Virus record (IMG/VR): IMGVR_UViG_3300027793_000087
Strand: one strand, 5' to 3'
DNA length: 64,000 nucleotides
From: an uncultured virus (IMG/VR IMGVR_UViG_3300027793_000087)
Lineage: Duplodnaviria > Heunggongvirae > Uroviricota > Caudoviricetes
Under the pieces are notes generated by a model. It was given only the letters and a program-made list of their open reading frames with translations. It was not told the origin of the DNA and ran no database searches. Positions 7,054 to 58,146 of the stretch are shown here, one piece after another. The stretch's first letter is position 1, and each line of letters opens with the position of its first letter. The position numbers and the translations under genes were made by a program.

Positions 7054-7105
7054 GCACTGGACCCCGTCTCCGGGGTTTCGGCCATTGAGGCCTCGTCAGC
7101 AGTGC
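7054..7105 (-). ncRNA. Type I hammerhead ribozyme 1
   Basis: GCACUG CUGACGA GGCC UCAAU GGCC GAAA CCCCG GAGA CGGGG UC^CAGUGC. Confidence 0.93.
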
Positions 7106-7484: not shown

Positions 7485-7536
7485 GCACTGGACCCCGTCG
7501 CCGGGGTTTCGGCCACTCAGGCCTCGTCAGCAGTGC
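7485..7536 (-). ncRNA. Type I hammerhead ribozyme 2
   Basis: GCACUG CUGACGA GGCC UGAGU GGCC GAAA CCCCG GCGA CGGGG UC^CAGUGC. Confidence 0.93.
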
Positions 7537-7775: not shown

Positions 7776-7827
7776 GCACTGGACCCCGTCTCCGGGGTTT
7801 CGGCCATTGAGGCCTCGTCAGCAGTGC
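7776..7827 (-). ncRNA. Type I hammerhead ribozyme 3
   Basis: Same sequence as copy 1. Confidence 0.93.
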
Positions 7828-8599: not shown

Positions 8600-8651
8600 G
8601 CATCAGACCCGCTGTCGCGGGTTTCGGCCACTCAGGCCTCGTCAGTGATGC
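8600..8651 (-). ncRNA. Type I hammerhead ribozyme 4
   Basis: GCAUCA CUGACGA GGCC UGAGU GGCC GAAA CCCGC GACA GCGGG UC^UGAUGC; compensatory changes in stems I and III. Confidence 0.93.
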
Positions 8652-8925: not shown

Positions 8926-8977
8926 GCATCAGACCCGCTGTCGCGGGTTTCGGCCAATCAGGCCTCGTCAGTGATGC
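8926..8977 (-). ncRNA. Type I hammerhead ribozyme 5
   Basis: As copy 4 with loop II UGAUU. Confidence 0.93.
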
Positions 8978-9221: not shown

Positions 9222-9244
9222 TACTGGTTTTTCGTGGGTACTTT
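9222..9244 (-). promoter_or_regulatory. Early promoter-like repeat, copy 5
   Basis: Core followed by TACAGT. Confidence 0.65.
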
Positions 9245-9387
9245 TATGGGCGCGCCACGCCGGCACGTTGTGCTGTGCAACACGCTAGCCCCCTACTCTG
9301 CCCTCGTGCGCGCGAATGCCTCTGTGGCCGCATTGCGGGCCCGCCACGCCGTCGACGCGCCCTCCCCTACCCCGGCCCCTGCCCCCC

Positions 9388-9396
9388 TGTGGATAA
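9388..9396. promoter_or_regulatory. DnaA box
   Basis: TGTGGATAA, reverse complement of consensus TTATCCACA, in non-coding DNA. Confidence 0.5.
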
Positions 9397-9451
9397 CGGC
9401 ACCACGGCGATTTCCCACATTGCGAAATCTGCAGCCCCCGCCGCGCCAGTC

Positions 9452-9508
9452 TGGCATGATTCTTGCTAGGCAATACGCGTGCCGTGGCATGCTGGCACGA
9501 TTCTTGCA
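9452..9508. promoter_or_regulatory. Cluster of sigma-54 (-24/-12)-like sites
   Basis: TGGCATGATTCTTGCT (9452), TGGCACGATTCTTGCA (9493), and CGGCACGCGTATTGC on the minus strand between them. Confidence 0.55.
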
Positions 9509-9512
9509 TAGT

Positions 9513-9766
9513 AGTGAGCGCACACTAACTTATGTTGCGGTGCAATATGATAGTGAGCGCACACTGACCAAGCTGTTGCGCCGCAGCATGTTAGTGTGCG
9601 CACACTGGGGCGCTGGCAACGTGTTAGTGAGTACTCACTGGGGCTGGTGCAGTGCGGCATATTGTTGCGCCGCAACATGTTAGTGAGCGCTCACTGGGGC
9701 GTTGTGCACTGCAGCAAAATGGTGCGGTGCAACATAGGCAACCCGGCGCTTTGTTGCGACGCAGCA
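9513..9766. repeat. Interleaved palindromes AGTGWGYRCWCACT (x5) and TGC-N2/3-GCA-type boxes (~7)
   Basis: Palindromes at 9513, 9552, 9593, 9626, 9682, alternating with TGTTGCGCCGCAACAT-like motifs. Confidence 0.8.
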
Positions 9767-9919
9767 CCCCTTTCGGGTCCCGTCGGTCGGGTGGGCGGTG
9801 GCCCCGCCTCAGACCAAAAGCTGCTCAATTCCAGATTTTTTCGCTCGAAACCTGAAAATTTTTTATATTTTTTCATAATGTGAAAAGTATAGAGAAAGTT
9901 GCGTAAACGCCACACTTCT

Positions 9920-9940
9920 AAATGAGAATTGTTCTTATTT
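9920..9940. promoter_or_regulatory. Fur-box-like palindrome
   Basis: AAATGAGAATTGTTCTTATTT. Confidence 0.45.
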
Positions 9941-10040
9941 GTCAGGGGTTGCGGGGGTTGTGCGGGGGTCCGTATAGAGAATTTGTATAGAGAAAAAAAC
10001 CCGCTAAGTCATTGATTTTATTGAATAGTTGACATAATTC

Positions 10041-10178
10041 TGTCAGGGGTAGTAGGGGTAGTAGGGGTCTAAACGACTTTTTTTATTTTTAAATGAAAAA
10101 TGAAAAATAAAATATCTACACCGACCTGGATTAGACCCCCGCTACCCCCGCTACCCCTGACAAATGTACGGACAAGTT
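10041..10178. repeat. Origin-like element copy 2
   Basis: Direct near-repeat of 1857-1991 with the same iterons, AT core and TGACAAATGT.CGGACAAGTT tail. Confidence 0.75.
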
Positions 10179-10232
10179 GACCCTGGATTGAGGTGGCAAA
10201 CTGGCCGCAACTTGCCTGGTTGCCGGTCGATG

Positions 10233-10262
10233 GGGCGGTTGTCTAGAGAAAGCTGTATTGGT
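10233..10262 (+). promoter_or_regulatory. Putative late promoter GGGCG-N16-TGTATTGGT
   Basis: Same bipartite motif and spacing as at 17161, 21114, 40221 and 58418(-). Confidence 0.55.
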
Positions 10263-10271
10263 AGTATAGAG

Positions 10272-10496
10272 ATGAAAAGATACAACCCAAACACCAAGAC
10301 ACCCTTCAGGCGCGGCGACGTACGCCACGACGGGTACGTCTTTTTTGCCTACACCAACAAGAGAAAGGCCGACGGCCACTTTGTTGAGATCTGGCTCAGC
10401 CCGCAGGCATCGGATAAGGCCACGGCAAACGACCGAGCCAGGAAGAGGCTAAAGGCCCGTGGCAATCGACGCCAAGACGCCGCTGCCAACGCCTGA
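10272..10496 (+). CDS. Hypothetical basic protein, 74 aa
   Basis: FRRGDVRHDGYVF...EIWLSP; directly after promoter motif. Confidence 0.6.
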   Translation: MKRYNPNTKTPFRRGDVRHDGYVFFAYTNKRKADGHFVEIWLSPQASDKATANDRARKRLKARGNRRQDAAANA

Positions 10497-11427
10497 CGGA
10501 TGGACGGCGGCCTCAGACATACGGCCAGGAGACCTTGTGTTCTGCTCAGACGGTGGGACTCAGAGGGTCCTGTCGGTCCAGAGCCACATCCCGTCGGCCT
10601 GCTACAGGGTGGAGCTAAGCGGGGGTCTCTCGATCGTGGGCGATCACAACATGACTTTCTCCCTGCAGTGCCGCAAGTGGAGGAACCGCCTGCAGATGTG
10701 GATACGAAACCAGAGCTCCAAGTTTGCGAAGAAAAGGTTCCGAAGGCCCCTGGCCGTAAGAAGCGTGGCCCAGATGCTCGATGAGGGCCTGGACGACAAC
10801 CGAAACAGAAAAAAGTGGGCACTTACTAACATCGAGCCTCTTAGGTACCCACACGTCGATCTTCCGGTCCCTCCCTACGTCCTCGGGCTGTGGCTTGGGT
10901 CGATGACAAAGTCCGGCAGGCACTGGGTCAGGGGCAAGGACATGGAGAGAATATCCAAGAAATGCCGCCGGCATGGGTTCTTCATAACCCAAAACCGCGG
11001 CGAGTTCTTCTTCCGGCCGAGTGTCAGGGAGTCTTTTACCTTCGCGGGTGCCCCGATACCGGACAAGATACCATCATCCTACCTGGAGAGCGACGTAGAG
11101 AGCCGACAGATGCTGCTTGAGGGGCTGATAGACTCCGAGGATGCCAAGAAACAGGCCCACGGAGAGGAGTGCTACACGATACAGGACTCCTGGCTATCGG
11201 CAAAGCGCAAGCAGCAGCTCCTGGAGAGCCTCGGACACACCACCTCGCTGACAAAAAGGGACGACAGGGCACGTTTTGCTCTTAATTTTTGCAAAATACT
11301 GACCCCGGCACCCAAAAATCGTCGCCAAATAGTGAAAATTGACAAAATTAGGCCCAGACAGTGCGTACACATCGTGACAGAGCACGATTTTGTCGCCGCG
11401 GAGGGCTTTTTGAGCGTAAAGATGTGA
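10459..11427 (+). CDS. Free-standing degenerate intein-like (Hint + LAGLIDADG-like) protein
   Basis: AIDAKTPLPTPDGW...IRPGDLV, LPVPPYVLGLWLG, LLEGLIDSED; no terminal His-Asn. Confidence 0.8.
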   Translation: MAIDAKTPLPTPDGWTAASDIRPGDLVFCSDGGTQRVLSVQSHIPSACYRVELSGGLSIVGDHNMTFSLQCRKWRNRLQMWIRNQSSKFAKKRFRRPLAVRSVAQMLDEGLDDNRNRKKWALTNIEPLRYPHVDLPVPPYVLGLWLGSMTKSGRHWVRGKDMERISKKCRRHGFFITQNRGEFFFRPSVRESFTFAGAPIPDKIPSSYLESDVESRQMLLEGLIDSEDAKKQAHGEECYTIQDSWLSAKRKQQLLESLGHTTSLTKRDDRARFALNFCKILTPAPKNRRQIVKIDKIRPRQCVHIVTEHDFVAAEGFLSVKM

Positions 11428-11430
11428 AAA

Positions 11431-12867
11431 ATGTTGAATAAGGCACAGGAAAAGGTCCTAGCGGACTTCGCAAAGAACAACCGTCACTGGCCAAAGCACC
11501 AGCTTGACGCCGCACTGTGGCAGGTGAGGTGGGAGCTGGAGGCCCTGCCTCACCAGCAGGAGCCGGAGGACGGCGAGTACGACACGTTTCTGATGCTGGC
11601 AGGCCGTGGGTCGGGAAAGACCCACACCGCGAGCCACTGGATCGGTATACGTGCATGGAAGTACCCCGAGACGCGCTGGCTGGTCACGGCACCCACATCG
11701 AACGACATACGGGCGACGTGTTTTGAGGGAGACTCGGGCCTTCTTAACATCATCCCCCAGTCGCTGATACAGGACTACAACAAGTCGCTGTTTGAGATCA
11801 CGTTGGTCAACGGCTCGATCATACAGGGCATACCTGGATCGGAGCCCGAGCGATACCGAGGCAAGCAGTACCACGGTGCCTGGTTCGACGAGCTCTGCGC
11901 CTTTGAGTACATCGACGACGCATACGACCAGGTACAGTTCACGCTGCGTTTGAGGCACCCCAACATCGAGCGCGTCCAGCAGATCATCACGACAACACCC
12001 AAGCCCAAGGAGCTGATAGTGGACCTGGCCGAGGGAAAGGTCGGGGGCGATGTATACATGGTCAACGCCAGCTCCTACGACAACCGACAGAACCTGTCGG
12101 CGACGTTCTTCAAGCAGCTCGAGACCTACGAGGGCACCGACCTCGGAAAGCAGGAGATCTACGGCGAGATCCTGAACCCAGAGGATGCCGGTATCGTAAA
12201 ACGGAAGTGGTTCCGGATGTGGCCGGCCAAAAAGGAGACACCGACCCTGGAGTACGTCATCGCATCCTACGACCCGGCCACCTCCGAGAAGACGCACAAC
12301 GACCCCACCGCGTGCGAGGTCTGGGGAATATTTGAGCAGCAGGATGCCGGGACCTGTGTCATGCTGCTGGATGCCTGGGACGGTCACCTATCATACCCCG
12401 AGCTGCGAAAGAAGGTAATCAGCGACTTCAAGGAGGTGGTGTACGGCGCGGACAACTCGTTTGCCAAGGGAAGAAAGGCAGACCTGATCCTGATGGAGGA
12501 CAAATCGGCAGGTATATCGCTCATCCAGGAGCTACAGATGGCCGGAGTGCCCGTCCGAGCTTACAACCCTGGCAGGGCCGACAAGGTCCAGCGTATCAAC
12601 ATCGTCGCGCCACTGATAGCCAAGGGAAAGGTCTACCTCCCGGAGGATCCCAAAAAGCCTGGCGAGTTTGCCGAGTGGGCCAAGCGATTCCTGCGACAGG
12701 TATGCTCCTTCCCCGAGTCCGGCGGCCACGACGACTACGTCGACAGCCTATCCCAAGCGCTTAGGGTACTGAGAGACTCCGGGTGGCTACAGCTGGACCC
12801 TCTCCCACCCCGCGACTACCAGTACGCCGACGACAAGAGGCAGCGAGTCAACCCATACGCCCAGTAG
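11431..12867 (+). CDS. terL: Terminase large subunit
   Basis: AGRGSGKT, AWFDE, ITTTP, SYDPA, HDDYVDSLSQAL. Confidence 0.95.
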   Translation: MLNKAQEKVLADFAKNNRHWPKHQLDAALWQVRWELEALPHQQEPEDGEYDTFLMLAGRGSGKTHTASHWIGIRAWKYPETRWLVTAPTSNDIRATCFEGDSGLLNIIPQSLIQDYNKSLFEITLVNGSIIQGIPGSEPERYRGKQYHGAWFDELCAFEYIDDAYDQVQFTLRLRHPNIERVQQIITTTPKPKELIVDLAEGKVGGDVYMVNASSYDNRQNLSATFFKQLETYEGTDLGKQEIYGEILNPEDAGIVKRKWFRMWPAKKETPTLEYVIASYDPATSEKTHNDPTACEVWGIFEQQDAGTCVMLLDAWDGHLSYPELRKKVISDFKEVVYGADNSFAKGRKADLILMEDKSAGISLIQELQMAGVPVRAYNPGRADKVQRINIVAPLIAKGKVYLPEDPKKPGEFAEWAKRFLRQVCSFPESGGHDDYVDSLSQALRVLRDSGWLQLDPLPPRDYQYADDKRQRVNPYAQ

Positions 12868-57427: not shown

Positions 57428-57817
57428 CTACTCTTTGGCGGCCTTGAGCTGCTTGATCAGGTCGTTGACGGCGCCGGAGAAATCTACCACGACGTCGGCC
57501 TTGAGCTCGACTTTGTTCTCACGCGTCTCCCTGTAATCGGATTGGAATTGACCGCGGAGTGCGATCTCCGCCAGCCGTGAGTTGTAGGCCTTGTTGCCGA
57601 CGTTTGCCAGCAGCTCGCGCTCCCAATGCGCCTGGCTGTGTACGATGGCCAGCTCGAGGGCGTCGGCGAAGTCTGGGTACTTTTTCTTCCAGTCCTCGGC
57701 CACGCCCTTGGTGATGCCGATCGCGGAGAACATCATCTTCTGCGATGCACCCGTCTTGCCCATCTCGATTAGTGTATCGCACATCTCGGGCTTGAATGTG
57801 TACTTTCGTTTTGACAT
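57428..57817 (-). CDS. Putative terminase small subunit
   Basis: HTH-like, WKKKYPDFADAL...SQAHWE. Confidence 0.65.
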   Translation of the reverse strand: MSKRKYTFKPEMCDTLIEMGKTGASQKMMFSAIGITKGVAEDWKKKYPDFADALELAIVHSQAHWERELLANVGNKAYNSRLAEIALRGQFQSDYRETRENKVELKADVVVDFSGAVNDLIKQLKAAKE

Positions 57818-58066: not shown

Positions 58067-58146
58067 TGGTGGAGCCGCCGGGATTCGCACCCGGGTCCGC
58101 CGGGTTCGCTTCGGTTTTATCCCGTCGTCGAAACTATTCCGGCCCC
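58067..58146 (-). ncRNA. tmRNA-like RNA, tRNA-like domain only (80 nt)
   Basis: GGGGCCG...UUCGAC...GGAC CCGGG UGCGAAU CCCGG CGGCUCC ACCA; G3:U70, A73, CCA. Confidence 0.8.

Follow-up and report, generated by a model that had tools for sequence, protein, structure and literature searches.

Host-regulator sites clustered at phage ends are already known for CtrA (PMC9437464), and have been proposed for DnaA in T5 (bioRxiv 10.1101/866236). In phages of Alphaproteobacteria, namely vB_BsubS-Delta and those resembling phiCbK, clusters of CtrA sites lie beside the terminase genes and in terminal repeats; a single master regulator is involved, and both its binding to the clusters and its control of promoters were demonstrated (Mascolo et al. 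2022, PMC9437464). The injection-stop region of T5 is non-coding, repeat-rich DNA near the genome end on which a grip by a host protein has been proposed during entry; its DnaA boxes, for which a role of DnaA is hypothesised, lie some 9 kb in from the end and are conserved in both number and spacing (bioRxiv 10.1101/866236). On bacterial chromosomes, the binding sites of the nucleoid-occlusion protein SlmA (SBS) are dispersed over the origin region (Tonthat 2011, PMC3020112), and in E. coli Z rings are blocked by two SBS on a multi-copy plasmid when SlmA is at about four times its native level (Cho and Bernhardt 2013, PMC3573117). PhaR/PhbF operators, in turn, occur singly or in pairs at phasin and phaR promoters (PMC3206438).

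Here we describe a gene-free array of sites resembling those of several host DNA-binding proteins in an uncultured phage. The stretch of DNA that we analysed (the window, 64,000 nt) is nearly the whole of a phage contig 64,498 bp long, closed by an overlap of 127 bp. Like the T5 region, the array is non-coding, repeat-rich DNA that may lie near a genome end and be gripped by host proteins during entry; unlike in T5, its make-up varies, and no two-step entry is known. It differs from the CtrA clusters in that up to seven mixed site classes, known from sequence, are exchanged between close relatives, in that the sites of a non-transcriptional division inhibitor are among them, and in that none overlaps the promoter motif nearby. 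Whereas chromosomal SBS are dispersed, a stretch of 183 bp here contains five predicted SBS, three of them degenerate, with PhaR-type boxes interleaved; in the laboratory, division is also blocked by SBS arranged in tandem on a multi-copy replicon (PMC3573117). Where hosts have one or two PhaR/PhbF operators at a promoter, the phage has six or seven. A literature search that covered mainly open-access papers found nothing on SlmA-site arrays or mixed host-operator arrays in phages.

A dense array between the early and late genes

Annotation of both arms confirms that the array lies between divergent early and late arms, as the sequence-only reading had proposed: rightward from the large terminase subunit (TerL) run the structural genes, and leftward DNA polymerase, ribonucleotide reductase, helicase and primase/D5 helicase, with the array just upstream of the packaging genes (Table 1). 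TerL relatives are encoded on 591 IMG/VR stretches, and the phage is present in freshwater sequencing runs. The nearest TerL of a cultured phage, that of Caulobacter phage RW, is 43.6% identical. Among cultured phages, a nucleotide search with the array gave no match and the tandem-SBS query only three short ones, and phage DSL-LC05, a 72% TerL relative of another lineage, has no SBS cluster when inspected by eye. Searching 401 Burkholderiales genomes with TerL returned no close match, only a single one at 33%. Habitat, SlmA and PhaR suggest a PHB-storing member of the Burkholderiales as the most likely host; no PHB genes were found among the phage ORFs scanned.

Table 1. Features of the array and its surroundings (positions in the window)
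Feature	Position	Strand	Remarks
Early promoter-like motif	9223..9241	-	points away from array into early genes; putative function
Left anchor	9304..9315		TCGC-RYR-CGCRT type; conserved; candidate end or processing signal
DnaA box	9388..9396	-	TTATCCACA; assumed consensus
TTTC..GAAA palindrome	9409..9429		class found in 28/42 relatives
Sigma-54 (-24/-12) type sites	9452-9466, 9470-9484, 9493-9507	+, -, +	match to TGGCACnnTTnTTGC
SlmA-binding-type palindromes	9513-9526, 9552-9565, 9593-9606, 9626-9639, 9682-9695 (span 9513..9695)		AGTG-N6-CACT; assessed by half-site rules
PhaR/PhbF-type boxes	9533, 9574, 9663, 9702, 9720, 9752 (span 9533..9766)		interleaved with SlmA-type sites
Further PhaR-type boxes	9645, 9270		9645 weaker; 9270 just outside 9280-9945
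Degenerate NtrC-like site	9710-9726		overlaps PhaR-type boxes
Right anchor	9768..9805		C-run, GGGTCC, G-rich tract ending GGTGGCCCC, then T-tracts; conserved; candidate packaging signal
Second TTTC-N7-GAAA palindrome	9871..9885		right of right anchor
Fur-box-like site	9921..9939		assumed consensus
Origin-like module	9937..10165		inverted arms of 9-bp units around AT-rich spacer; putative origin
IHF-type site	10005-10017		inside origin-like module; assumed consensus
Free-standing intein-like ORF	10459..11427	+	before TerL; PHROG 15; N-terminus matches solved inteins
TerL (terminase large subunit)	11431..12867	+	used to collect relatives

The individual sites listed by the sequence-only reading could all be located between 9280 and 9945. 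The DnaA box is where it had been placed, and is weak evidence, there being three in the window and one or more in only 8 of 42 relatives. Both TTTC..GAAA palindromes (proposed at 9411 and about 9871) are present; this palindrome, tentatively IclR-family-like, is left without an assigned factor, its motif showing no clear enrichment in host genomes (5 matches against 2 for the control). The three sigma-54-like sites claimed for 9452-9508 occur in both orientations, the one at 9493 being exact and the other two having one mismatch each to TGGCACnnTTnTTGC, a consensus which, like that of NtrC, was taken from PMC8743547. A search with the NtrC pattern found only one enhancer-protein site for them, a degenerate one about 230 bp upstream of the minus-strand sigma-54 site. 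The five palindromes whose type had been left unnamed have the form AGTG-N6-CACT and are its only copies in the window. What had been counted as about seven TGC..GCA boxes are seven TGC-N3-GCA cores, of which six fit TGNTGC-N3-GCAM and one sits inside a sigma-54 palindrome. The Fur-like box announced at 9920 is also there, albeit outside the array proper, in the right-hand zone; the relatives have 13 Fur-like sites to the right of this anchor-side boundary, the right anchor, and 9 inside the array.

None of 300 dinucleotide shuffles of 9280-9945 reached the observed count in any of the seven classes, a test that is post hoc for two of them, since these very sequences served to shape the IclR-like (TTTC..GAAA) pattern and the final letter of the PhaR one. 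From 9452 to 9766, 220 of 315 bp belong to a site, and the rest of the window (63.3 kb) contains only 2 SBS-like, 1 PhaR-like and 2 DnaA matches. Judged simply by its number of perfect palindromes, the region does not stand out; an Rfam scan of the array for structured RNA gave no match, and a sigma-70 promoter scan nothing exceeding shuffles.

We consider the five AGTG-N6-CACT palindromes to be candidate SlmA-binding sites, as the papers that a full-text literature search retrieved for the palindrome were all on SlmA; an initial LacI-type reading was dropped after this match. The published consensus is GTGAGTACTCAC, a 12-bp palindrome with the half-site G-T-R-A-G-Y (Tonthat 2011, PMC3020112). 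As in chromosomal SBS, two array sites (9627 and 9683) satisfy the rules in both half-sites, and that at 9627 is the published consensus itself; two of the three degenerate sites fail one half, and the third fails both halves at position 4. Turning to bacterial chromosomes, the SBS 14-mer is enriched in only 5 of 121 Burkholderiales genomes. In two small Burkholderiales genomes picked for their high SBS counts, strict SBS surround dnaA (7/7 within about 200 kb in G107, 6/6 within about 120 kb in G053), which is the pattern known for nucleoid occlusion, and in a third (G044) 4 of 8 are on the dnaA contig.

The resemblance to PhaR operators, also suggested earlier, holds up well: several boxes match the motif TG[N]TGC[N]3GCAA, footprinted for PhbF/PhaR in the betaproteobacterium Herbaspirillum seropedicae (PMC3206438). 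Five bacterial genomes contain 19 matches to PhaR-type boxes, against 1 for the control; these lie upstream of phasin or phaR in three distinct places (G001, G107 and G053), and the other matches adjoin unrelated genes. Overall, the proposal of an array of host-protein-type sites appears sound, and the SlmA and PhaR motif matches extend it.

Elsewhere in the phage, the sole terminase-small-subunit-like gene that we found lies far from TerL, in the replication arm (57428-57817, minus strand). The intein-like ORF before TerL starts with Ala instead of the Cys or Ser of inteins, has no exteins, and is kept across the family at 26-43% identity, against about 80-91% for TerL. A tmRNA-like match of 80 nt (58067-58146, minus strand; RF00023, 54.5 bits) seems to comprise the tRNA-like domain only. 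Five hammerhead-ribozyme cores lie on the minus strand between small early genes (7075-7099, 7506-7530, 7797-7821, 8621-8645 and 8947-8971); two of the five fold into the three-stem shape, and Rfam at the gathering score reported none.

Fixed anchors and exchangeable sites

Of 66 loci extending 2.3 kb or more upstream of TerL, 42 are non-redundant, 28 of them (window included) selected through TerL and 14 through the SBS scan, the latter set being biased. The layout common to the 42 runs from early genes through a left anchor, a variable array and a right anchor with T-tracts to inverted iteron-like arms around an AT-rich tract. The two anchors, the IHF-type site and the inverted repeats of the origin-like zone had not featured in the sequence-only reading. 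Both anchors were detected in 31 of the 42 arrays, 227-493 bp apart, and in these loci 217 of 264 sites fall between them. The 42 arrays hold 372 sites, compared with 6 in the adjacent coding kilobase that served as a control.

What lies between the anchors is variable. Among the 28 TerL-selected arrays, SBS occur in 17, PhaR in 17, NtrC in 17, sigma-54 in 11 and Fur in 13; no class is universal, and totals range from 1 to 19 sites per array, some relatives having just 1-4 recognised sites. At the extremes, one array has sigma-54 sites only, one has nine PhaR boxes and one has seven NtrC boxes. SBS are absent from 11 of the 28 and fully conforming in only 12, and the set of sites differs between phages with 82-91% identical TerL. 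The sites show little helical phasing (R about 0.17 at 10.2-10.5 bp), and tandem duplications of 38-42 bp confound it. Left of the left anchor, six loci contain unassigned AGGG-W3-ACCCT palindromes together with a CTCTGTCCCC motif, both of which recur in many relatives; the palindrome showed no enrichment in host genomes (2 matches, 3 in the control).

To the right of the array, the window's origin-like module has arms at 9937-9966 and 10041-10072 facing one at 10131-10165. It may act as a replication origin: inverted iterons flank an AT-rich tract, and the phage encodes its own primase/D5 helicase. The arms differ in sequence between relatives and their layout is kept, with an exact arm of at least 14 bp in 25 of the 42; IHF-type sites are often found in this zone. 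A 9-mer of GTATAGAGA type occurs five times in the origin-like zone (9887-10272 in the window), in the closest clade only.

Similar arrays are found beyond this family. The tandem-SBS pattern is present in about 180 viral stretches and its reversed version in none. Of 121 tandem-SBS loci, the 80 with long flanks were searched for a terminase and 41 short ones left aside; a terminase gene lies within 4 kb in 69 of the 80, the array being upstream in all 69 and never downstream, and none was found in the other 11. The 80 loci include near-duplicates (27 come from the window's family, and the 53 others reduce to 41), and the 69 span five TerL clades that are at most 34% identical, plus a sixth group recognised by a distinct TerS. 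Tandem sigma-54 sites were followed up at 56 of 63 non-redundant loci; TerL was found in 32 of these, 29 having the array on its upstream side and 3 on its downstream side. A G-run plus T-tract resembling the right anchor stands directly before terS in unrelated lineages, and in several of these the SBS cluster directly abuts the G-run.

Two further observations concern these phages. Near the arrays of four loci, beside sigma-54 or SBS clusters of unrelated phages, are GTTTCACGTGAAAC palindromes, which we take to be parS-like and which would add a second chromosome-architecture protein. Five other loci, on contigs of up to 128 kb whose gene content appears T5-like, have SBS clusters, some together with sigma-54 and Fur sites, that adjoin small D5-like DNA-binding genes or TerS.

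A candidate genome end

The sequence-only reading also placed a genome end near the array, a proposal for which the support is indirect: the position upstream of the terminase, a repeat boundary in phage RW and an enrichment of contig ends are in line with it, whereas the contig ends of the family itself are scattered. In contigs of at least 15 kb, tandem SBS lie within 300 bp of a contig end in 8 of 55 cases (1.3 expected), and tandem sigma-54 sites in 11 of 67 (1.2 expected), figures that were computed with near-duplicate contigs kept in and that could stem from assembly breaks in hypervariable repeats.

The record of Caulobacter phage RW has an identical terminal repeat of 2,940 bp, whose inner boundary falls in the same divergent gap; the accessible text of PMC11053796 does not describe how the RW ends were set. 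The repeat ends 19 nt left of a 10-mer that equals the most frequent left anchor and precedes two loose sigma-54-like sites, the anchor match being one post hoc 10-mer in a distant phage (TerL 44% identical). Within the family, a 35.6-kb contig (L201) ends 21 nt left of its left anchor. It is the only family contig to fit; 53 true contig ends of the family are scattered with no fixed break at either anchor, and small anchor scans likewise gave none. One sequencing run (X1) shows a step in read depth near 8.9 kb, from about 6 to 14.5, that is absent from another (X3), these runs being possibly the source of the assembly; the only raw-read run examined had no coverage of the phage. We infer that a genome end may lie at or near the anchors, and that this end would enter the cell first.

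Possible functions of the array

We tentatively favour the array being a generic coat of host proteins on the likely genome end, a reading that we would place a little short of probable. Between a sponge or sensor for host regulators and a ratchet or protection for incoming DNA, the choice offered by the sequence-only reading, the balance tips towards a structural coat and away from a sensor, since site types are interchangeable between close relatives: if sites swap while their position stays fixed, being bound would matter more than which protein binds. The coat also draws support from motifs that match the published sites of unrelated proteins, and from arrays that are bounded by anchors, upstream of the terminase and near contig ends, as well as from the RW terminal repeat. 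SlmA, PhaR, sigma-54 polymerase, NtrC, Fur or any other tight host binder, whose binding here is predicted from the motifs, would load onto the first few hundred base pairs to enter, keep the end from slipping back and protect it against nucleases that attack ends, up to the point at which the inward-facing early promoter at about 9223 is engaged by host RNA polymerase. It would then matter little which protein binds, so that site types change through tandem duplication, and an SlmA-mediated block of host division could be a side benefit in those lineages that keep SBS. Against such a coat, an array of 0.4 kb could ratchet only the tip of a 64-kb genome, and the published CtrA array regulates transcription from the same position (PMC9437464). 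Nor does position separate a coat from regulation, as the gap upstream of the terminase also holds divergent promoters and the putative origin.

Rather unlikely, to our mind, is a DNA decoy or effector, in which replicated genomes would titrate host regulators, and SlmA bound to phage DNA would block the FtsZ ring and stop division. The plasmid experiment in E. coli (PMC3573117) is a laboratory precedent. SlmA scores above the family cut-off (NF007015) in 89 of 121 Burkholderiales genomes, a tally that takes in one unpublished genome, its recognition helix is conserved in all 6 inspected, and host chromosomes have few strict sites (0-9 per genome). Tandem SBS recur, moreover, in five terminase clades. 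Yet a decoy has no need to sit upstream of the terminase, as 69 of 69 do; it also leaves unexplained the 11 of 28 relatives that lack SBS, and only 12 of the 28 have a fully conforming one. Activators (NtrC, sigma-54) and repressors (PhaR, Fur), if titrated together, would have opposite effects, and close relatives differ in their set.

Similarly unlikely, and ranked next, is a sensor of host state, whereby regulators of carbon storage, nitrogen, iron and the cell cycle would set the divergent early and late promoters and allow lytic deferment. It has the best published precedent in the CtrA clusters (PMC9437464), it fits an array placed between divergent arms, and in the window the minus-strand sigma-54 site does have its degenerate NtrC-like site upstream. 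However, the CtrA clusters involve one conserved regulator with sites at promoters, and here no class is universal among the 28, whilst the inputs would change between phages whose TerL are 82-91% identical. The early region contains the early promoter-like motif four times in identical form, always on the minus strand and before a ribosome-binding site and ATG; only the copy at 9223 has array sites within 600 bp upstream, at distances of 150-520 bp and with no overlap. Ordinary regulation fits poorly with the three identical promoters that have no array, and with the absence of sigma-54 sites from 15 of the 17 arrays that have at least two NtrC sites; NtrC and sigma-54 co-occur in just 7 of 26 NtrC-bearing arrays.

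We find it improbable that bound proteins serve as a roadblock, stalling a leftward fork from the adjacent putative origin, or the packaging motor, and so helping to fix the mode of replication or the end of the genome. Replication forks are known to be blocked by operator arrays, the origin-like module with its IHF-type site abuts the array across the family, and interchangeable sites would suit a steric barrier equally well. Set against this are the SBS clusters that directly abut the G-run before terS in several unrelated lineages, the 11 of 80 loci with no terminase found, the rarity of DnaA boxes (8 of 42 arrays) and an origin function that is itself putative. Least credible of all, and very improbable, are phage-own operators or neutral duplications that resemble host motifs by chance: an SBS 18-mer adjoins unrelated TetR genes at four loci in some bacteria, which would allow for a different TetR protein as the one that reads it, many of the small ORFs in the phage lack annotation and strict SBS number 77 against 72 for the control over 42 hand-picked genomes, but neither a PHROGs scan of 89 ORFs nor a Pfam scan of window ORFs brought up a regulator family, and at least five unrelated host consensus sequences are matched where the reversed control gave 0.

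Returning to the generic host-protein coat, we would go further only with more reserve. It is possible, if on the doubtful side, that unrelated tailed phages have convergently evolved a protein-free cassette at the packaging end, made of interchangeable host operators, those of chromosome-architecture proteins such as SlmA among them, which grips and shields the first DNA to enter, and that the amplified genome turns the host's own SlmA into a division block with no phage protein involved. This bears on how phages unlike T7 secure and finish the entry of their DNA, and on what role is played by the repeat-rich non-coding DNA at phage ends. If SlmA is recruited, the phage could stop host division by DNA alone. 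The classes of site also hint at the host of an uncultured and widespread freshwater family.
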